NCBI GenBank assembly: GCA_016707895.1
Contig: JADJGV010000034.1
Location: 885,625-941,544 of the forward strand
Direction: 5' to 3'
Length of the DNA: 55,920 bases
From: Myxococcales bacterium
Lineage (GTDB): Bacteria > Myxococcota_A > Polyangia > Haliangiales > Haliangiaceae
The notes under the pieces: model-generated
Told to the model about the DNA's origin: nothing
Seen by the model: only the letters and a program-made list of their open reading frames with translations
Databases searched by the model: none
Translations under genes and position numbers: made by a program
Part shown: positions 16,167 through 25,433 of the stretch, piece after piece
Layout of the letters: each line of letters starts with the position of its first letter
Numbering within the stretch: position 1 is the stretch's first letter

Positions 16167-16365
16167 GGTGGCGGCGCCTCGCGCGGTGATCCGCGCGGTG
16201 GCCCGGCCCGCACGTTAGCCGCGCGGCCCGCGCCGCTCTACTCCTCTCGCCGAGCGCGCAACGCGCGAAGATCGTTGCCGTTGCGCAGCGTGGCCTCGTG
16301 CACGACTCCGCTGCCGCGCCGCGCCGATCAGCCGCGCCGCGGGATATCCTCGGGCGTGGCCAAGC

Positions 16366-17285
16366 CGCTCGCAGGGAAGGTCGCCGTCGTCGCCGGAGCC
16401 ACCCGCGGCGCCGGGCGTGGCATCGCCACCGCGCTCGGCGAGGCCGGCGCCACGGTCTATTGCACCGGGCGCAGCGTCGCCGGCGCGCCGGGCATGCAGG
16501 GCCGCCCCGAGACCATCGACGAGACCGCGGCGATCGTCACCGCCCGCGGCGGCCACGGCATCGCGGTGCGCGTGGATCACACGGTGCCGGCCGAAGCCGC
16601 CGGCCTGTTCGAGCGGGTCGGCGCGTTCGACATCCTGGTGAACGACATCTGGGGCGGCGACGACCTGGTCGAGTGGGGCAAGCGGCTGTGGGAGACCAAG
16701 CTCGACGACGGGCTCACGCTGATCGATCGCGCGATCAAGAGCCACGTCATCACCAGCTACCACGGCCTGCCGCGGCTCCGGCGCGGCGGCGTGGTCTTCG
16801 AGATCACCGACGGCGACGCGTACTTCTACCGCGGCCACTTCTTCTACGACCTCGTGAAGACGACGGTCATCCGCATGGCGTTCGCGCTGTCGCAGGAGCT
16901 GCAGGGGCGCGACGTCACGGCGCTCGCGGTGACGCCCGGCTTCCTGCGGTCGGAGTGGATGCTCGATCACTTCGGTGTCACCGAGGCCACCTGGCGCGAC
17001 GCCGCGGTCAAGGTCCCGGAGTTCATCGCCTCGGAGACCCCGCTGTTCGTCGGGCGGTGCGTCGCCGCGCTGGCGGCCGATCCTGCGATCGCCGCCCGGA
17101 ACGGCCGGGTCTACGCGTCGTGGGACCTCGCCGAGGAGTACGGGGTCGACGACGCCGACGGCTCGCGGCCGCACTTCGTGCGCTGGCTCCGCGAGCACAT
17201 GCCCGCGGTCGCCGCCGGCTGGAAGAAGGCCGACGACGGCTTCTACGCCTACTGGGGCAAGATGCCGTACGCCACGCCGACGTAG
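16366..17285 (+). CDS. SDR-family oxidoreductase (GTG start)
   Basis: Rossmann dinucleotide loop KVAVVAGATRGAGRGIA. The ORF track fuses this to upstream junk. A GTG at 16366 gives a ~306-aa SDR-sized protein. Confidence 0.6.
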
Positions 17286-17595: not shown

Positions 17596-19821
17596 CTACC
17601 CGGCCGCGAGGTCGCCGGTGGCCCAGCCGGTGAAGACCCGCGCGCCGGCGGCGGCGAACGCGGGGTCGTCCGACGCGACGCCCGCCGCGGCCAGCTCGAG
17701 CCCGCGCAGGTACGGCGCCAGGCGTGCGGCGAGCCCGCCGTCGACCGTCGCGACCTGCGCGCGGGCCCACGGGCCGAAAGCCGCCGCGCGATCGGACAGC
17801 GCCAGGTAGAACACCAGCTGCCGCCAGGCGTACGCGGCGTTCTTGCGGCGGATCAACGCCTCGTGACGGGTCCGGGTCGGGATGCGCAGCTCGCGGACGA
17901 TCCAGCGCCACGTCCGCTCGGCGAGCGCGCCGAGCTCCGGCGCCAGCGCCGCTCGCGCCGCCGGCTGCGCGAACACCAGCGCCAGGTTGTGGGTCGTGAG
18001 GATCTGGCTCTGCTCGATGATCGCGCCGTTGCCCGCGACGCCGCTGAGCGACGGCGCGATCCGCGCGGCGCGGTCGCGGCACAGCGCGGCAAACGCGTCG
18101 GCGAGGCGGCCCGAGGTCGGCAAGGTCGCGACCGCGCGCGCGTCGATCGCGAAGTAGCGCGCGTACAGCGTGCCGGTGAACACCTCCGCCGCCAGGCGGG
18201 CCGACTTCGCGAACTTCTCGGTGAACGAGCCCATGAAGATGTCGGCCGCCAGCTCTTCGACGAACGGCGGCCGGGTCGGCGCGGTGCCCGCGAGCGCGGC
18301 GAGCTCGACGATCAGCTTGTTGGGCATGATCGTGTGCGGGAAGCCGCGCACCGCCGCGGCGCCGACCTGGCTGAACACCGCGGTCGCGACGTCGTGGAGC
18401 GCCGCCGGCTCGCCCGCGCGTGCCACCAGGGTCGCGATCCACGGCACCTCCTCGAGCCGCACCTGGTGCTGGTAGTGCAGGAGCAGGAGCCCGCGGCGGG
18501 CCCGGAACGCGGCGTACAGCGCGGTGTAAAGCGCGCGCGCCGTCGGATCGGCGAACGCCACGGCGCGGACCTGCGCGGTCACCTGCTGGACGACCCGCGC
18601 GAGCTCCTCGGCCGACGGGATCACGCCGCGATCGACCAGGGTATCGAGCGGCGCGTCCCAGCTCCGCGCGACCTTGGCGGCGAAGTAGCTCGGCAGCGCC
18701 GCGCCGGGCGGCACGCGGAAGCGCGCGGCCTCGGTGGCGTCGAGCGGGGCCATCACGTCCTCGAGCGCGAGCCCGCCGTCGCGGGGCAGGGCGCTCAGCC
18801 GGTCCACCAGCGCGCGGCGCAGCGTCTTGTGCAACGGCGCGGCCACCGCGCGGGCCTCGTCGGCGCGGCGCGCGGCCAGCGCCGCGCTCCCCGGGGCGCC
18901 GTGGGCGGTCACGTAGCAGGCCAGCGCCCGCCGGAGCGACGCGTCCGCGGCCAGCGCGTCGCGATCGTCCGCGCCGCGGGCCAGCCGGTCGACCACGCCG
19001 GCGACCTCGCGCGCCCGCCGCGTCGGCGGCGCGCCCGCGCGCCGGACCTCGGCCGCCAGCGCCGCTACCTCGGCGTCCCAGCCGGTGGGGCGTCGGCCGC
19101 CGAGCGCGGCGCCGTGGACCGCGCCGTCGACCAGCCGCGGCAGCGGGCCGTCGACGGTCGCGGCCAGGAGCGCCATGGCGCGATCGCGGAGCGGCGTCCA
19201 CACCTGCAGCGCGGCGTGCTGGGCTTCGAGGCGGGTCTGGCGGCGCGCGACGTCGAGCCCGTCCACCGTCGGGCCGACGTCCTGCAACCGCACGCCGCGG
19301 GCCAGCGGGCGCGGGCCGTCGGCCGGGCGCGGATAGAACCGCAGCGCGTGCATCCACGGCGCGAGGATCGCCAGGAGCGGGCCGCTGCCGTCGAGCCCGT
19401 GGGCCCGCAGCCACGCCACGACCAAGAGCGCGCCCTCCTCGGGCACGTCGATGCGATACGCGCCGCTGGCCAGGAGCTCGGCTGCGCGCCCCTCGAGGTG
19501 CGCCAGGTTGAGCGCGAGCCGGGTCGCCGGCACGCGCAGCGCGGCGGCCAGCGCGACCTCCCACGGCGCCAGCGGGCCGCCCGCGTGGTAGCCGCCGGTC
19601 GCGAAGCCGCCGGTGACGACCTCGAGCGTGACCCACGCCGGCGCCGCGGTCGGCGTGCGCGAGCCGACCGCGATCGACCCGTCGCGCATCCCGGCCAGCA
19701 CCGCGCGCCAGCGCGCGACCTCGGCCGCGGCCCGGTCGCGCACCGCCGGATCGGCGTGCGCGCTGCTGGTCCGCTCGGCAGCGACCAGCTGACTCCATGC
19801 GTATTCGATGCTCACGTCCAT
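17596..19821 (-). CDS. large alpha-helical hypothetical protein (741 aa)
   Basis: Long intact ORF, Ala/Leu/Arg-rich but with W/Y/F/H spread throughout. No identifiable catalytic motif. Start codon lies 12 nt after the tRNA-like element. Confidence 0.5.
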
Positions 19822-19832
19822 GACAGGCCTCG

Positions 19833-19904
19833 ACCTGGTGGCACGACTTGCACGTGCGCCCGCCCGGTATCAAGCCGGGTGCTCTGCTGCTGAGCTACAC
19901 CAGG
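19833..19904 (-). tRNA. tRNA-like element (72 nt, class I cloverleaf, anticodon UGA; atypical D- and T-loops; possible pseudo-tRNA)
   Basis: On the minus strand the sequence reads CCTGGTG-UA-GCUC-AGCAGCA-GAGC-A-CCCGG-CUUGAUA-CCGGG-CGGGC-GCACG-UGCAAGU-CGUGC-CACCAGG-U. All four stems are perfect Watson-Crick. U8, A14, G15, C48, T54, C56 and C61 are conserved. G19 and U55 are missing, position 37 is U, and there is no encoded CCA. Confidence 0.45.
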
Positions 19905-20157
19905 GCACGAGGCTGTGGCCTCGCGATCCGCGCGCGGTGGCTGCCCCGCAGCCACACCACGCACCGATGCACGCTAGCTAACACGACGCCCGGCGCGCAC
20001 GCGAGCGAAATCGCCGCGCCGGTCGCCGGTGGCGCGTCGCGGCAGAAGGCGGCAGCGGTGGGCGCGGCGCGGGACGAACGGCCGGCCGGCACTCCATCCA
20101 CGCGTCGACGGCGGGCCCGGGGAATGGACCTCGGGCCACGCCGCCTTGGAGCCACCC

Positions 20158-22059
20158 ATGCAACGCACCATCCTCCTCTCCGTGCTCGCCGCCGCCGCCA
20201 CCGTCGGCGCCGCCGGCACCGCCCGCGCCCAGAGCGCGACCGTCGAGTGCTACTTCTCGCCCGCGAGCACGCTCGCCCCGCTGGCGACCGCTGGCGCCAA
20301 CGGCTCGTTCGCCGCCAACGGCGGCGCGACGATCGCGGGCTACCAGCCGTACTACGAGACGACCTACGCGATCGACGTCGGCGTCTGGGTCGACGACGCG
20401 TTCCTCGCCACCACCCCCGACGCTGCGTCGCTGGCGCTGCGGTACTTCGAGCACGCCAACTGCGTGTTCGCCGCCGGCGCGAACCAGGACACCGGCGACG
20501 GCGTCAACGAGGCATCGCTGCGCCTGGCCGGCAACCGCATCCGCTACTACGCGCACACGACGCCCAACGCGCCCGGCTCGACCGCGCCGTGGGGCCAGCA
20601 GTACAACTGGGACTGGGCGCAGGCGATGAAGGGGATGAGCGGCATCCCCAAGGTCAACATCCTGTTCACGACCAACCTGGCCGCCGATGCCAACGCCGCC
20701 GGCGCCTACAACCGGCTGACCTGGGGCGGCGCGGCGAACGGCATCGGCCAGGGCAACGCGATCATCGCCGTCGATCCCGCCTGGTTCCAGAACGGCATGA
20801 CCTCGGGCATCTTGCGCGACCTCGCCGAGGACTGGTGGGGGCTGATCGCCGCCCACGAGGCCGGGCACGCGCTCGGCGGCGTCCACCTGCCGACGCAGTA
20901 CGACACGATGTGCTGCGACACCCCGGCCAACAACTACCCCGGCAGCGTCATGGGCACGACCCCGTCCGAGGACTTCACGGTGGCGCAGTCGACGTGGGAC
21001 CTGATCACGGCGAACGACGCCAGCGACGTCGACAGCTACAGCGACCCGTACAAGACCACGGCCAACCCGGTGACCAACGTCACCTGGAGCTTCGACGACA
21101 TCTCCGACTTCCTGTTCGATCGCGCCGGCGGTGACGTCTGGGTCGCGCCGTCGACCGGGGCGTCGTTCCTGGCGCGGACGCTGCGCCACGACTGGTTCTG
21201 CATCAACAGCGAGACCTGCCTGACCGGCGACGTCAACGGCGACGGCCGCGCCGATCTGATCGCGTTCACCCGCGGCACCACCGGCGACGTCTACGTCGCG
21301 CTCGGCACCGCCAACGGCGGCTTCGCCGGCACCGGCATCAAGTGGCACGACTTCTTCGCGATCAACAGCGAGACGCCGCTCGTCGGCGACTGGAACGGCG
21401 ACGGCAAGGACGACATCGCGGCGTTCACCGGCGGCACCACCGGCGACGTCTACGTCGCGCTGTCGACCGGCAGCTCGTTCAGCGGCACCGGCGTGGTGTG
21501 GCACACGTACTTCGCCCCCAACGGCGAGGTGCCGCTGGCCGGCGACTGGAACGGCGACGGCAAGGACGACATCGCCGGGCTCACCCGCGGCACCACCGGC
21601 GACGTCTTCGTCGCGCTGTCGAGCGGCGCCGGCTTCGGCGCCCGCACCAAGTGGCACGAGTTCTTCAGCATCAACAGCGAGATGCCGCTGGCTGGCGACT
21701 GGAACGGCGACGGCAAGGACGACCTCGCGACCTTGACCCGCGGCACCACCGGCGACGTCTACGTCACCTTCTCGACCGGCGCGGCCTTCAACGGCACCGG
21801 CCTCAAGTGGCATGACTTCTTCTGCATCAACGCCGAGGTGCCGTTCGCCGGCGACGTCAACCACGACGGCAAGGACGATCTGGTGTCGTTCGCCCGCGAC
21901 GCCGGCGGTCACGTCTACGCCGCGCGCTCGAACGGCGCCGCCTTCGTCGGCACCAACTGGGTGTGGACCACCGGCCTGTGCATCGGCGACGACGTCTGCG
22001 GGCTGGCCGACGTCACCGGCGACGGCCGCGCCGACGCCCTGGCGTTCGGCCGCAACTGA
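20158..22059 (+). CDS. secreted zinc metalloprotease (HEAGH zincin) fused to a 7-repeat FG-GAP/integrin-alpha beta-propeller
   Basis: Signal MQRTILLSVLAAAATVGAAGTARA. HEXXH motif IAAHEAGHALGGVH. C-terminal seven ~60-aa repeats of the form GDxNGDGKDDxxxxTxGTTGDVYVALSTG..F...W. Confidence 0.6.
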   Translation: MQRTILLSVLAAAATVGAAGTARAQSATVECYFSPASTLAPLATAGANGSFAANGGATIAGYQPYYETTYAIDVGVWVDDAFLATTPDAASLALRYFEHANCVFAAGANQDTGDGVNEASLRLAGNRIRYYAHTTPNAPGSTAPWGQQYNWDWAQAMKGMSGIPKVNILFTTNLAADANAAGAYNRLTWGGAANGIGQGNAIIAVDPAWFQNGMTSGILRDLAEDWWGLIAAHEAGHALGGVHLPTQYDTMCCDTPANNYPGSVMGTTPSEDFTVAQSTWDLITANDASDVDSYSDPYKTTANPVTNVTWSFDDISDFLFDRAGGDVWVAPSTGASFLARTLRHDWFCINSETCLTGDVNGDGRADLIAFTRGTTGDVYVALGTANGGFAGTGIKWHDFFAINSETPLVGDWNGDGKDDIAAFTGGTTGDVYVALSTGSSFSGTGVVWHTYFAPNGEVPLAGDWNGDGKDDIAGLTRGTTGDVFVALSSGAGFGARTKWHEFFSINSEMPLAGDWNGDGKDDLATLTRGTTGDVYVTFSTGAAFNGTGLKWHDFFCINAEVPFAGDVNHDGKDDLVSFARDAGGHVYAARSNGAAFVGTNWVWTTGLCIGDDVCGLADVTGDGRADALAFGRN

Positions 22060-22210: not shown

Positions 22211-25200
22211 TCAGGCGCGGCGCAGCGCCTCGAGGTCGCGGATCAGCTCGGAGTAGGCGACCGGGTCGACGTCGCCGAAGGTCGCGCCGGCCGAGAGGTG
22301 GAGCTCGCCGAGCGTCTGGGGTCGCGCACCGTCGGCGAGGTCGGCGATCTCGAAGCCCGGCGACAGCTCGATGGTGGCCACGGCCACGCCGCCGCGGGTC
22401 GCGACGGTCCGCCGGTACGCGGCGACGCTGCCCGGGCTGCTGCGCTCGAACCCGCGCGCCTCCAGGACGCCGAGCAGCGTGACGGTCGGCACGCCGAGGC
22501 CGGCGAAGCGCGACGAGCGCGCGGCCGCCACCTCGGTCGGCGGGCACGCGTAGGTCTCGCGCGTCAGCTGGGCGAAGGGCTGGATGAGCTCGTAGTCGGC
22601 GAACACCCCGGCCCAGGCGCGCACGTCGTCCGCGAGCTCGAGCGGATGCGCCACGCTGACCCGGCAGGCCGGCCCCAGCGTGAGCAGCGCGTCGTCGACG
22701 GTGGCGAACGTACCGTCCTCGGCGACGCGGTAGGTCGCGGCGCGGTCGCCATCGACGGCGCGCCACACCAGCGCGCGCGCGAGCGCGGCCAGCAGCGGAT
22801 GCGCCACGACGCGCTGCTGGAAGTCCGGCAGGCTCCAGCGTCGGCCGCGCACCATCGCGTGCTCGAGGCGCCGGAGCTGGCGATCCGCGGTGGCGGCGGC
22901 GTCGGCCTTGAGCGCCTTGAGTCGCGCGAGCGCCGCGTCGGCCAGCGCCGGGTCGTCGTCCTTGGTCTTGCGCGGCAGGCCGCGGAGCGTGGTGCCGCGC
23001 TCGTCCTTGACGACCAGGGCGAGCCCGGCGTCCAGCGACGCCGTGAAGGTCCGCGCGCCGAACGACACCCGCAGGCGCCCGTCGCCATCGAGCCCGAGGT
23101 CGGGCACGGTGCGATCTTCCAGCGCGTCGCGGTCGAGCCCCCGCGCCGCGGCGGCTTCGTCGAGCAGCGCGTTGACCACGCCGCGCAGGTCGTGGAACCG
23201 CGACGTCGCGGCGATGTGGCCGAGGTGCATGATCGCCGCGTCGCTGGCCAGCGCGGCGAGCGCCACGCAGGCGCGCTCGGCCTTGGCCTTGTCGCGCCGC
23301 GCCCAGTCCCGCGCCAGGGCGGGCAGGCGTCGCTCGCTCTCGGGGCTGGGGAAGTAGACGACGGCGTGCAGCATCCACGCGTGGCGCCCGGGGCTGTCGG
23401 CCAGGAGCCACTGCTCGAGGAGGCCATGGGCGAACGCCCCGAGCGACGCCAGATCGAGCGCGGCGAGGCGCGCCAGCCCTGGATACGGCGCGTCGAGGGA
23501 AGAGATCGAGACCATCTCGACCAGCGCGGCGATCGCCGGCGCTGGCAGGGGTTCGCCGCTCGCCAGGCGCACGCGCGGCAGCCGCTCCAGCCGCAGGAAC
23601 GCGGGCAGCTTGGGCGGCGCCAAGCGCACGCGCAGCGGATCGCGCTCGAGCAGCGCGTCGATGACGCCGGCCGCGTCGGCGCCGTAGCGCGCGGCGGCGG
23701 CGGTGACGACGGCGGCGTGCCCGGCGGTCGCGAGGAAGGCCAGCGCCGCCTCGGCGTCGTCGCGATCCGGCCCCAGCGCCCCCACCGCGGCGGGGATCAA
23801 GCCGAGCGCGGCGGTCTCGGCGTGCGCCGCCAGCCAGGCGCGCGCCGCGCGGCGGTGGGCCTTGCGCCGCGCCGCGATGCGCGCGAACAGCGGGGCCGCC
23901 CGCGGCGACACGAAGCTCACGATGGCCGCCAGGAAGTCGTCGGCGCCTTCGTAGTCGAGGTTGCCGAGCCGGTCCTTGTGCAGGAAGCCAGGGAGGGCCG
24001 CCAGCCCGTGGCGTGCCACCCAGGCGACCGCCTCCGTGTCGAGCCACCCGCCCCCCTGGTTCCAGGTGTCGAGGCTGAGCCGGGCAGGGCGCGCGTCGTC
24101 GTCGCGCTCGTGGTCGTGGGCAGCGGGGGGCAGTTCGACGTGCTCCTCGAGGCCCGGCAACAGCGCGACACCCTCGAGCACGCGCCCCTTGGGGGGCGGC
24201 TGGCGCCACGGCCGCTCGCGCAGCACCGCTGGCAGCGCCACCTCGGGAGCCGGCGCCGTATCGTCACCGGCGGCGGCCGTGACGACGCGCTTGGCCAGCG
24301 CCTTGCCCTTGGGGCCGGTGGCCAGCGCCTCGGCCAGCTCGGGATGATCCTGGAAGTAGCCGGCGACGATCGCGTTGAGGATGGGGTGCCCCGCGTAGGC
24401 CGCGAGGATCCGCGCCGCGGCCTCGCTCGCGAAGCAGGTCAGCGCCGTCGCCAGGTCGCGTGGCGGGGTCTTTAGGACCGGGCCGTAGCCGGGCTTGGCG
24501 AGCGCCCCGGGGATCGCGGCGCCGAGGAGCGCCAGCGCGTCCGCCTCCGGCACGCTGACGGCGATCTCCGCGGCGTAGAGCCCCAGCGTGAATGGCGCGA
24601 CGCTCCCGCCGAAGCGGCGTACCAGCGCGGGCTCGCGGCAACAGCTGAGCAGGAACTCGACGTCGCGCCGCGGGTCGTCGGGCGGCTCGCCGAGCCAGGC
24701 CGTCAGCGCCGCGTCGCCCCAAGGCTCGTCGGGGAACGCGTACGCCAGGTGCGCCGCGATCCACGGCGCGGCGCCGGCGCCGAGCGCGCGCGCGCGGTCC
24801 CGCGCGGCCGCGTAGTCCGCGTCGCGCGCTGCGCACACCGCGCTGCGGATCGGGCGCCACGCCTCGCCGACCCACGAGGCCTTCGTCGCGTCCTTGCGGA
24901 GGTAGATCTCCTGGGTCCAGTTGCCGGGCGAGTCGACGCTCAGGTCGAGCGCGAGGCGCGCCGCCTCGACCAGATCGGCGACGCCGCGGGCCTCTGCCAG
25001 CGCCGGCGCGATGGGCAGGTCGCGATCCAGCCGATGCGCCATGCACATGAACGCCGCCAGCGTCTCGAGGCTGGCGTCGGCCAGCCGCGCGCGCGTCAGG
25101 TCGTCGATCAGCGCATGGGCCGCGGCCCGCAGCGGCGCGAGCTCGGGCAGGTAGCTCGACTGGACGCCGCGCGCCAGCGCCGCGCGATACGTGAACCGCC

Positions 25201-25318
25201 CGTGCGTGAGCTTGGCGCGCAGCGCCTCGATCGGCTTGCGCGCGGGCGCGGCGATCGTCGCCGGGATGGCCCGGCGTGGCCTGAGCGAGCGCAGCACCGC
25301 GTCCGGGATCGTCTGCAT
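22211..25318 (-). CDS. large helical-repeat protein, DUF4132-like C-terminal domain (1035 aa)
   Basis: Intact 1035-aa ORF starting MQTIPDAVLRSL. The C-terminal region (...LRRLEHAMVRGRRWSLPDFQQRVVAHPLLAALARALVWRAVDGD...) resembles DUF4132 (the MolR-like family) as I recall it. I could not verify the match. Confidence 0.45.
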   Translation of the reverse strand: MQTIPDAVLRSLRPRRAIPATIAAPARKPIEALRAKLTHGRFTYRAALARGVQSSYLPELAPLRAAAHALIDDLTRARLADASLETLAAFMCMAHRLDRDLPIAPALAEARGVADLVEAARLALDLSVDSPGNWTQEIYLRKDATKASWVGEAWRPIRSAVCAARDADYAAARDRARALGAGAAPWIAAHLAYAFPDEPWGDAALTAWLGEPPDDPRRDVEFLLSCCREPALVRRFGGSVAPFTLGLYAAEIAVSVPEADALALLGAAIPGALAKPGYGPVLKTPPRDLATALTCFASEAAARILAAYAGHPILNAIVAGYFQDHPELAEALATGPKGKALAKRVVTAAAGDDTAPAPEVALPAVLRERPWRQPPPKGRVLEGVALLPGLEEHVELPPAAHDHERDDDARPARLSLDTWNQGGGWLDTEAVAWVARHGLAALPGFLHKDRLGNLDYEGADDFLAAIVSFVSPRAAPLFARIAARRKAHRRAARAWLAAHAETAALGLIPAAVGALGPDRDDAEAALAFLATAGHAAVVTAAAARYGADAAGVIDALLERDPLRVRLAPPKLPAFLRLERLPRVRLASGEPLPAPAIAALVEMVSISSLDAPYPGLARLAALDLASLGAFAHGLLEQWLLADSPGRHAWMLHAVVYFPSPESERRLPALARDWARRDKAKAERACVALAALASDAAIMHLGHIAATSRFHDLRGVVNALLDEAAAARGLDRDALEDRTVPDLGLDGDGRLRVSFGARTFTASLDAGLALVVKDERGTTLRGLPRKTKDDDPALADAALARLKALKADAAATADRQLRRLEHAMVRGRRWSLPDFQQRVVAHPLLAALARALVWRAVDGDRAATYRVAEDGTFATVDDALLTLGPACRVSVAHPLELADDVRAWAGVFADYELIQPFAQLTRETYACPPTEVAAARSSRFAGLGVPTVTLLGVLEARGFERSSPGSVAAYRRTVATRGGVAVATIELSPGFEIADLADGARPQTLGELHLSAGATFGDVDPVAYSELIRDLEALRRA

Positions 25319-25433
25319 GCCAGTCCGGACTCTCGCCCATCCGGCGGCGCCGCGGAAGCGCCGCCGCGCGTCCGACGGTGCCGCGACGAGCGGCGCGACC
25401 ACCGATGGCCCGCGCTCGGCCGATTCAGGCGGC

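Follow-up and report, generated by a model that had tools for sequence, protein, structure and literature searches.

The window considered here is the whole analyzed stretch of 55,920 nt from a Myxococcales bacterium (Haliangiaceae; assembly GCA_016707895.1, contig JADJGV010000034.1, forward-strand positions 885,625–941,544). It is ∼75% G+C and has long open reading frames (ORFs) in every frame. On its minus strand, a tRNA-shaped RNA at 19833–19904 lies directly upstream of a gene at 17596–19821 that encodes a mostly alpha-helical protein of 741 aa. The window copy appears to be one member of a widespread and apparently undescribed RNA–protein module, and its RNA appears not to be a broken tRNA. 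A full-text literature search found no account of this module, and Rfam 15 holds no dedicated family for these RNAs, RF00005 being their sole match.

The window RNA reads CCTGGTG-TA-GCTC-AGCAGCA-GAGC-A-CCCGG-CTTGATA-CCGGG-CGGGC-GCACG-TGCAAGT-CGTGC-CACCAGG-T, a 72-nt class I cloverleaf that includes the discriminator U73. Its stems of 7, 4, 5, and 5 bp make up 21 pairs, all of them Watson–Crick, and they carry a D loop AGCAGCA, an anticodon loop CUUGAUA, and a T loop UGCAAGU; CCA is not encoded. ARAGORN calls tRNA-Ser(tga) at 19832–19904 on the minus strand, the sole tRNA of the 55.9 kb. The cloverleaf match is far above chance: with the Rfam tRNA model RF00005 it scores 54.9 bits, the gathering score being 29, and E over the entire window is 3.9e-9. 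The anticodon loop, C32 U33 U34 G35 A36 U37 A38, presents UGA, and the variable region is 5 nt (CGGGC), as in class I. In bacterial tRNA-Ser the long variable arm of class II is the main identity element for seryl-tRNA synthetase (SerRS), and that arm is absent here. U8, A14, U33, and G19:C56 are present, and G18:U55 is swapped for A18:G55. Since this swap covaries across the RNA family described below, the elbow contact is probably kept in another form. An earlier note on this DNA had described the flawless minus-strand cloverleaf, the retention of U8, A14, G15-C48, T54, C56, and C61, and the combination of U37 and a UGA (Ser) anticodon in a class I frame. All of these features are seen in the sequence, and the covariance-model check it had proposed came out above threshold. 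It had also reported G19 and U55 as missing; the change of U55 to G is borne out, but the family alignment shows that G18 has become A and that G19 is kept.

The ORF downstream is a real gene, because its GC3 is 0.966 (codon-position GC) and its N terminus aligns with the N-terminal motif of a protein family; its homologues and predicted structure are described below. Its ATG sits 11 nt past the discriminator base, and the trailer between the discriminator and the AUG (CGAGGCCUGUC, 19822–19832, minus strand) contains a Shine–Dalgarno-like GAGG. The junction TCGAGGnnnGTCATG is common to the window and four homologous loci (L001, L005, L006, and L008). On the plus strand, a 676-aa FG-GAP gene (20029–22059) diverges from the RNA and a short-chain dehydrogenase gene (∼16300–17285) converges on the 741-aa gene, both supported by codon-position GC. 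Because the flanking genes are oriented in this way, the RNA and the 741-aa gene form an isolated unit.

Homologues of the 741-aa gene were collected at 90 loci: four in reference genomes (Kofleriaceae, Polyangiales, Nocardia jejuensis, and a Curtobacterium plasmid), 80 in metagenomes, those of Frigoriglobus and Archangium, and four on Streptomycetaceae plasmids. In most loci ARAGORN places one or two tRNA-like genes directly upstream of the homologue, on the same strand and with highly varied "anticodons." A covariance model, R1, built from 48 family RNAs gives 64–94 bits to family RNAs versus 41–63 bits to ordinary tRNAs in the same loci, and every R1 match of at least 64 bits in ∼750 kb sits directly upstream of a family protein gene. 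R1 also found copies that ARAGORN missed (L004, L041, L066, L082, and L089). An RNA was assigned to the family if it scored at least ∼64 bits with R1 and lay on the same strand at most ∼250 nt upstream of a family gene; the window RNA, at 87.5 bits, belongs to it. Overall, 75 of the 86 homologue loci with upstream DNA carry one or two family RNAs, in Myxococcota, Actinomycetota, Planctomycetota, and others, which is the recurrence upstream of homologues that the earlier note had proposed to look for. Ten of the remaining 11 loci show nothing even with the R1 filters off. The other is a metagenomic locus, L025, where five ordinary-looking tRNAs (Thr-UGU, Met-CAU, Asn-GUU, Ile-GAU, and Gln-UUG, all ending N-CCA; positions 13–516; R1 42–63 bits) stand on the same strand as the gene. 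This arrangement suggests that ordinary tRNAs can take the position of the family RNA.

The scaffold shared by 81 distinct family RNAs is close to an idealized tRNA, with the consensus CCUGGAG-UA-GCUC-AGnGGnA-GAGC-G-CCCGG-CU-nnn-GA-CCGGG-AGGGC-GCnGG-UUCGAnU-CCnGC-CUCCAGG-U. All 81 have a 7/5 acceptor/T-stem arrangement and a short variable region. In the 48-sequence alignment used to assess structure, 99.8% of alignment cells are paired and 17 of the 21 pairs show compensatory, two-sided changes; none of 500 shuffles reached the observed values, and no slid register came close. The elbow varies in concert as well. D loops with GG go with U55 and those with AG go with G55 (61/4/2/14; Fisher p = 2e-10, kinship ignored), and the swap between G18/U55 and A18/G55 is seen repeatedly, in several protein clades. 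Because this D-loop/T-loop contact covaries, the comparison speaks for a true L-shaped fold. A pyrimidine stands at position 1 in 96% of copies, with C1:G72 in 52 of 81 and U1:A72 in 25 of 81. The discriminator is U, C, or G, and 36 of the 81 copies (44%) encode N-CCA. Locus pairs reveal how slowly this body changes: the scaffold differs by 0–4 changes per 64 nt where the proteins are 45–80% identical and four-fold sites have diverged by 30–75%. In one pair (L047 and L059) there is no scaffold difference at 50% protein identity, and in another (L076 and L083) there is none either, yet the loops read CAGG and CUUA. By this measure the RNA body is under very strong purifying selection and nearly frozen.

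The anticodon behaves quite differently from the loop and stem that hold it. C32 and U33 are invariant, A38 is 97% conserved, and the sequence of the anticodon stem is near-invariant. Yet 28 triplets occur among the 66 loops of 7 nt, 13 further loops have 6 nt and two have 5 nt (n = 81), and position 37 is a pyrimidine in 26% of copies. In the closer locus pairs, divergence at positions 34–37 is ∼0.44 versus ∼0.38 at four-fold sites, so that the "anticodon" appears to be essentially unconstrained and to drift at about the synonymous rate. Given this match to four-fold sites, hypermutation or diversifying selection of the loop is unneeded as an explanation. The composition of positions 34–37 is skewed (U 33%, G 33%, C 22%, and A 12%) despite the G+C-rich hosts.

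Comparison of loops with genes points the same way. There is no relation between the loop triplet and the codon content of the adjacent gene, and the genes at loci with suppressor-like (amber or ochre) loops contain no in-frame stop codons. A bldA-like decoder serving rare codons of its own gene was rejected, because several genes lack the cognate codon and an amber-like locus has no in-frame TAG. Pairing of the loop with the start region or the upstream leader was likewise discarded: complementary 4-mers are no commoner than in permuted locus pairs and, if anything, fewer. With U37 in the window RNA, 15 of 81 loops at 5–6 nt, and drift at positions 34–37, the features of a functional decoder are lacking, and on this comparative evidence the family RNA appears not to serve to decode a particular codon.

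The RNA and the protein appear to have been inherited together as a two-part module, to judge from a protein distance tree on which RNA subtypes follow protein clades rather than anticodons. The Kofleriaceae-like clade of the window has the subtype CCUGGWG, with T loop UGCAAGU and trailer UCGAGG. An actinobacterial-type clade keeps a conserved RNA pair, CAUGGAG plus CUUGGAG; a large clade has the subtype UCCGGGG, ending C-CCA; and the Streptomycetaceae and Curtobacterium share CGNCGUG, with T loop GGCGGAA and ending G-CCA. Within the actinobacterial-type clade, RNAs of the CAUGGAG/CACGGAG type are found in L003, L038, L044, L048, L052, L063, L072, L073, and L084, in the distal position except in L003. 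On a body with C1:G72 they mostly retain a Pro-like loop (CGG/UGG) or versions of it that lack one base (CUCGGA, CUGGGA); this may be a trace of the ancestry of the RNA family. In Archangium lansingense (L086:7827–7981) two near-identical tandem RNAs both carry the loop CUCUUAA, and a 402-aa ORF with no known domain begins 23 nt after the family gene. On a Streptomyces yangpuensis plasmid (L087; NZ_CP102515.1, 26463–27347), an IS982-family transposase lies ∼80 nt upstream of the RNA. From the IS element to the family gene the locus tags run without RS33905, and the RNA has probably been annotated by PGAP as a tRNA gene.

Nine of the ten loci with nothing upstream belong to a single protein clade (L018, L034, L046, L051, L055, L057, L075, L079, and L085, the last from Frigoriglobus tundricola). 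In this clade no linked RNA was found within ∼4 kb by R1 with filters off, and the upstream regions are heterogeneous; neither R1 nor inspection of those regions revealed a substitute RNA. No residue in the protein alignment tracks the presence of the RNA. Genomes of this clade either encode the RNA at another place or can do without it.

The position of the RNA suggests that it forms the head of the message. In most loci the longest ORF begins 3–36 nt past the RNA, and many junctions are too short for a Shine–Dalgarno sequence (UCCCAUG in L012 and L027, CCAAAUG in L022, and UUCCGAUG in L014). In L061 the junction is G-CCAUG, where the start codon overlaps CCA. The four Streptomycetaceae plasmids, which come from cultured strains, have G-CUU-AUG or G-CCU-AUG, 3 nt apart, and NCBI's independent CDS start on NZ_CP102515.1, 4 nt after the RNA, is in agreement. 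Upstream, a −10-like TANNNT box ends 8–12 nt before the first base of the RNA in 26 of 69 loci, versus ∼3 expected by chance; in L088 and L090 a −35 box, TTGCAC, is present as well. A scan of the window's intergenic region found no sigma-70-like promoter match and no terminator between the RNA and the gene. From the tight spacing, the −10-like boxes, and this lack of a terminator in the window, we infer a primary transcript in which one or two tRNA-like RNAs lead directly into the ORF, the two being cotranscribed. RNase P and RNase Z recognize the acceptor/T arm and the elbow, and an encoded CCA is normally an anti-determinant that inhibits RNase Z. Given this anatomy and these substrate rules, excision would leave an mRNA leader of about 2–12 nt in many loci. 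In the window, RNase Z-type cleavage would leave CGAGGCCUGUC-AUG, the trailer then being the whole 5′ UTR. The earlier note had proposed a tRNA-like 5′ leader cut by RNase P/Z. Its placement as a leader is supported by the comparison; the processing itself is read from anatomy. The note foresaw neither that the anticodon would prove free throughout the family nor that the partner would come from a large protein family without known relatives.

The surroundings of the module vary. An 8-bp GC-rich hairpin, CGCGAGGC-CACA-GCCUCGUG, is predicted at 19906–19925 on the minus strand, ending 1 nt 5′ of the window RNA. It is kept as CGCGAGGC-nnnn-GCCUCGUG, with a different loop, in L001 (5898–5917), both loci being Kofleriaceae, and none was seen in other clades when upstream regions were compared; the hairpin may lie outside the module. 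The rest of the divergent intergenic region, 19926–20028, is the presumed location of the promoter. The FG-GAP-repeat protein, with which the RNA shares this 207-bp intergenic region, has a weak match to reprolysin-like metallopeptidases. Farther upstream, by 2.3 kb, the product of a minus-strand gene (22211–25402) has 1,063 aa and carries a DUF4132 domain (MolR-like; E = 3.5e-47) at its C terminus. All-against-all ORF clustering of 87 loci found no shared gene besides the family gene, which excludes the DUF4132 protein as a part of the module. A conserved third component of any kind was also rejected, the neighborhoods in Frigoriglobus, Archangium, and the Streptomyces plasmid all being different. 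A phage origin or defense island was considered and set aside as well: viral contigs and phage records hold no homologue of the protein, viral contigs hold no match to the RNA scaffold, and the protein belongs to no PADLOC or PHROGs family.

The partner protein is widespread and uncharacterized by name. It has >610 homologues, full-length ones in the hundreds, all named "hypothetical," and an exhaustive profile search recovered 1,820 clusters at 50% identity, 1,007 of them at E ≤ 1e-30. Lengths are uniform, 720–840 aa, with no domain fusions. The 741-aa protein has no match in Pfam, NCBIfam, PADLOC, or PHROGs, and a profile search of Protein Data Bank (PDB) sequences gave nothing at E up to 1. 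AlphaFold2, run on a 94-sequence alignment, predicts a mostly helical fold with high confidence (pLDDT 94.4, pTM 0.89), with a small beta region near 66–78 and 229–236. Foldseek comparison of this model returned best E values of 0.27 against the PDB and 0.11 against viral structures. The ribosomal protein uS7 accounts for 8 of the top 50 PDB matches, at noise level (E ∼2, probability ∼0.1, TM ∼0.2) and of no evidential value. About 55 positions are invariant over the 94 sequences. They include R55, E128, R442, R443, N501, K502, E523, D527, E603, Q604, Q606, N612, R667, and Q668, and no histidine is among them. So many invariant polar and charged residues suggest an enzyme or a precise binding site.

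It is useful to contrast the module with known uses of the tRNA fold. Family RNAs resemble canonical tRNAs (RF00005) in their 7/4/5/5 cloverleaf, 5-nt variable region, U8, A14, G15:C48, U33, G19:C56, and C61, and also in the L-shape implied by elbow covariation, the CCA of many copies, and a tRNA-gene-like placement of promoters. They differ in their free anticodon and position 37, their loops of 5–7 nt, the pyrimidine at position 1 in 96% of copies, and the use of one scaffold with 28 "anticodons" always as leader to one and the same protein gene. A18/G55, U37, and a Ser anticodon without a class II arm set the window copy further apart. Allo-tRNAs are noncanonical tRNAs of soil bacteria with diverse anticodons (35 codons); many are probably unused in translation, and some lie near toxin–antitoxin genes. 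Their defining features are Ser identity, a long variable arm, and acceptor/T-stem lengths of 8/4 or 9/3 (Mukai et al. 2017, PMC5389517). By comparison, all 81 family RNAs are 7/5 with a short variable region, and allo-tRNAs have no described single partner protein. Another noncanonical tRNA family is tRNAProX with ProRSx, which combines C1:G72, changed anticodons, and an adjacent dedicated protein and is sporadic in Streptomycetaceae; its partner protein is a paralogue of prolyl-tRNA synthetase, and the RNA, with three defined anticodons, mistranslates (Schuntermann et al. 2023, PMC10404621). The C1:G72 pair, found in the window copy and in 52 of 81 family RNAs, is insufficient alone for membership. 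Unlike ProRSx, the adjacent protein here has no aminoacyl-tRNA synthetase domain, and the family loop drifts and frequently departs from a length of 7 nt.

Other parallels lie outside decoding. The bacterial Y RNA YrlA, with its partner Ro60/Rsr, is reportedly an RNA ligand that modulates a protein, as described by Chen and colleagues in 2013 and 2014. Here, too, a tRNA-like noncoding RNA is encoded beside a largely alpha-helical protein, which in the case of Ro60 binds RNA. However, YrlA is only a partial tRNA mimic with a Ro-binding stem, whereas the family RNA is a full cloverleaf fused to an mRNA, and the TROVE and vWA domains of Ro60 were not detected in the 741-aa protein. Punctuation of transcripts by tRNAs is known from mitochondria, from the mascRNA of MALAT1, and from bacterial tRNA–mRNA cotranscripts such as the tufB operon, and the mitochondrial mRNAs freed in this way are leaderless. 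The likeness lies in a tRNA-shaped element within a longer transcript that recruits RNase P/Z, the cut setting the end of the neighboring RNA, as we propose here. The known cases involve real tRNAs or poorly conserved mimics, whereas this one involves a dedicated, apparently non-decoding scaffold that is tied to one protein family across phyla. The Escherichia coli thrS operator mimics the anticodon arm of tRNA-Thr and serves as an autoregulatory leader. In both arrangements a tRNA mimic stands next to the site where translation begins on the message for a (here putative) tRNA-binding protein, and it would allow feedback by competition with the real substrate; thrS imitates the anticodon arm only and depends on the anticodon, whereas here the whole tRNA is imitated and the anticodon is irrelevant. 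Type III toxin–antitoxin systems such as ToxIN likewise have one or more RNA genes, at times tandem, within the same operon as a protein gene and directly upstream of it. In those systems ToxI consists of short repeats that are processed by the toxin and followed by a terminator, and the toxins are small endoribonucleases. In contrast, the present loci have one or two full tRNA-like units and a gap that is often ≤12 nt; the scan of the window found no terminator, and the 741-aa protein has no PADLOC match. The proposed mechanism comes closest to tRNA punctuation joined to a leader that acts as a substrate mimic.

A composite model would draw these elements together. A promoter, as judged from the conserved −10-like boxes, would fire a few nucleotides upstream of the RNA. 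Of the host's tRNA-processing enzymes, RNase P would cut at the 5′ border of the RNA and RNase Z (or a counterpart) past the discriminator, leaving a near-leaderless mRNA (2–12 nt of leader in many loci) whose translation would then depend on tRNA-type processing. Selection would spare the anticodon and act on the tRNA body, that is, on the four stems, the D/T elbow, C32, U33, A38, and the often encoded CCA. The co-encoded protein would bind tRNA, with the RNA as its private ligand. As a substrate mimic, the RNA would let the protein sense or repress its own mRNA at the acceptor end, beside the start codon, and the excised RNA may also, or instead, be a dedicated substrate or cofactor. We give about an even chance to this combination of RNA excision by tRNA-processing enzymes with binding of the tRNA body, as ligand or substrate mimic, by the protein. 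Somewhat more tentatively, and with a little less than even confidence, we envisage an unrecognized ribonucleoprotein or enzyme system: a novel-fold protein with a private, non-decoding, tRNA-shaped RNA as its substrate, carrier, or regulatory ligand, the expression of the two being coupled by tRNA punctuation that leaves a leaderless mRNA. Its hosts would be large-genome soil and freshwater Myxococcota, Actinomycetota, Planctomycetota, Chloroflexota, and others.

Four lines of reasoning favor a protein that recognizes the tRNA body. The anticodon stem, C32, U33, A38, and often CCA are kept although RNase P and RNase Z need none of them. In some clades two distinct paralogues of the RNA persist. 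The association of the RNA is with one protein family. Finally, the start codon directly adjoins the acceptor end or even overlaps it, an ideal placement for feedback by an acceptor-end binder. A substrate-mimic leader would also explain why the RNA looks like an idealized consensus tRNA, why it could be lost in a clade whose protein is unchanged, and why real tRNAs stand in its place in L025. Several points weigh against the composite model. The clade without the RNA retains every residue conserved in the RNA-bearing clades (90 columns are ≥95% identical overall), so that, on this alignment, the linked RNA is not indispensable, at least in cis. Nothing in the predicted fold points to RNA binding or to catalysis. 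The needs of RNase P and RNase Z could by themselves explain some of the constraint seen in the acceptor/T arm and elbow. Because 44% of copies encode CCA, an RNase Z inhibitor, the processing route must, on present rules, differ between clades. Lastly, NNC triplets, which would read GNN codons, make up only 3 of 66, and A34 likewise 3 of 66; pure neutrality of the loop predicts no such skew.

The RNA could instead be purely a cis element for processing and translation control, idle after excision and making no contact with the protein. The tight spacing to the start codon and the unchanged protein in the RNA-less clade would suit such an element, whose mechanism is established for mitochondrial transcripts and MALAT1/mascRNA. 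Yet RNase P and RNase Z require only the acceptor/T arm and the elbow, not the near-invariant anticodon stem, C32, U33, and A38; the CCA of 44% of copies is an anti-determinant for RNase Z; two distinct paralogous RNAs are maintained in some clades; and a processing signal needs no link to a single protein family across phyla. We consider this explanation unlikely. Contact with the protein could, alternatively, be antagonistic, the RNA acting as an antitoxin or decoy (in the manner of type III toxin–antitoxin or abortive-infection systems) that restrains a tRNA-directed toxin until transcription stops. An RNA-then-protein order in one transcript with one or two tandem RNAs, as in type III operons, is consistent with this idea, as are the occurrence of the module alone in variable contexts and on large plasmids and the fit of a generic tRNA-like body with an irrelevant anticodon to a decoy. 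We nonetheless judge it quite improbable: PADLOC and PHROGs return no match and no terminator separates RNA from gene in the window, a 741-aa protein is far from the ∼170–200 aa of known type III toxins, and in the window and its close relative L001 the module looks stable, chromosomal, and single-copy. Moreover, the RNA-less clade keeps all of the conserved residues; were the protein a toxin with nothing to oppose it, this would kill the cell unless another locus supplies the RNA.

The remaining alternatives take the cloverleaf at face value, as a tRNA or a former one. Genuine decoding tRNAs, whether spare, anticodon-switched, or mistranslating as in allo-tRNAs and tRNAProX, might merely share the operon. 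These RNAs do pass tRNA detectors, many encode CCA, some have canonical loops such as CUCUUAA, ordinary tRNAs occupy the same position in L025, and the depletion of NNC triplets and A34 hints at a translation-related constraint. Such a role is very improbable, however, for RNAs of which 15 in 81 have loops of 5–6 nt and 26% have a pyrimidine at position 37, whose positions 34–37 drift at a neutral rate on a frozen body, and whose discriminator (U, C, or G) and 1:72 pair are independent of the anticodon. The "tRNA-Ser" of the window lacks the class II long arm that SerRS requires, and amber- or ochre-like loops occur beside genes without in-frame stop codons. The earlier note had also raised a pseudo-tRNA or a relic attachment site. 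Its noncanonical loops, and the frequent use of tRNA genes as integration sites, made a decayed pseudogene, an attachment-site relic, or a chance cloverleaf worth weighing, but the comparative data refute these options and leave them a negligible chance. Chance is at odds with the Rfam E value of 3.9e-9, and decay with a scaffold that recurs across phyla in 75 loci at a fixed position and orientation, with compensatory changes, under purifying selection, and in subtypes that track the protein phylogeny; domain annotation of the window shows no integrase nearby, and there is no conserved neighbor.

The existence of this module bears on genome annotation. Family RNAs are called as ordinary tRNAs of arbitrary isotypes (for example, Ser, Lys, Gln, "Pyl," and "Stop"), and such miscalls inflate or distort tRNA gene sets and apparent counts of suppressor tRNAs in genomes and metagenome-assembled genomes, which a dedicated covariance model would correct. 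If the composite model is right, a "hypothetical" protein family of ∼1,800 clusters at 50% identity would gain a testable handle in the form of a tRNA-shaped RNA partner. The family would also provide a clear bacterial case of a tRNA body under very strong selection with a free anticodon, a use of the tRNA fold beyond decoding, and would bring to bacteria a mitochondria-like tRNA punctuation that yields leaderless mRNAs. Should the more tentative ribonucleoprotein or enzyme system prove to exist, the tRNA fold would have a new non-translational use, and the family would represent a new class of tRNA-binding proteins.

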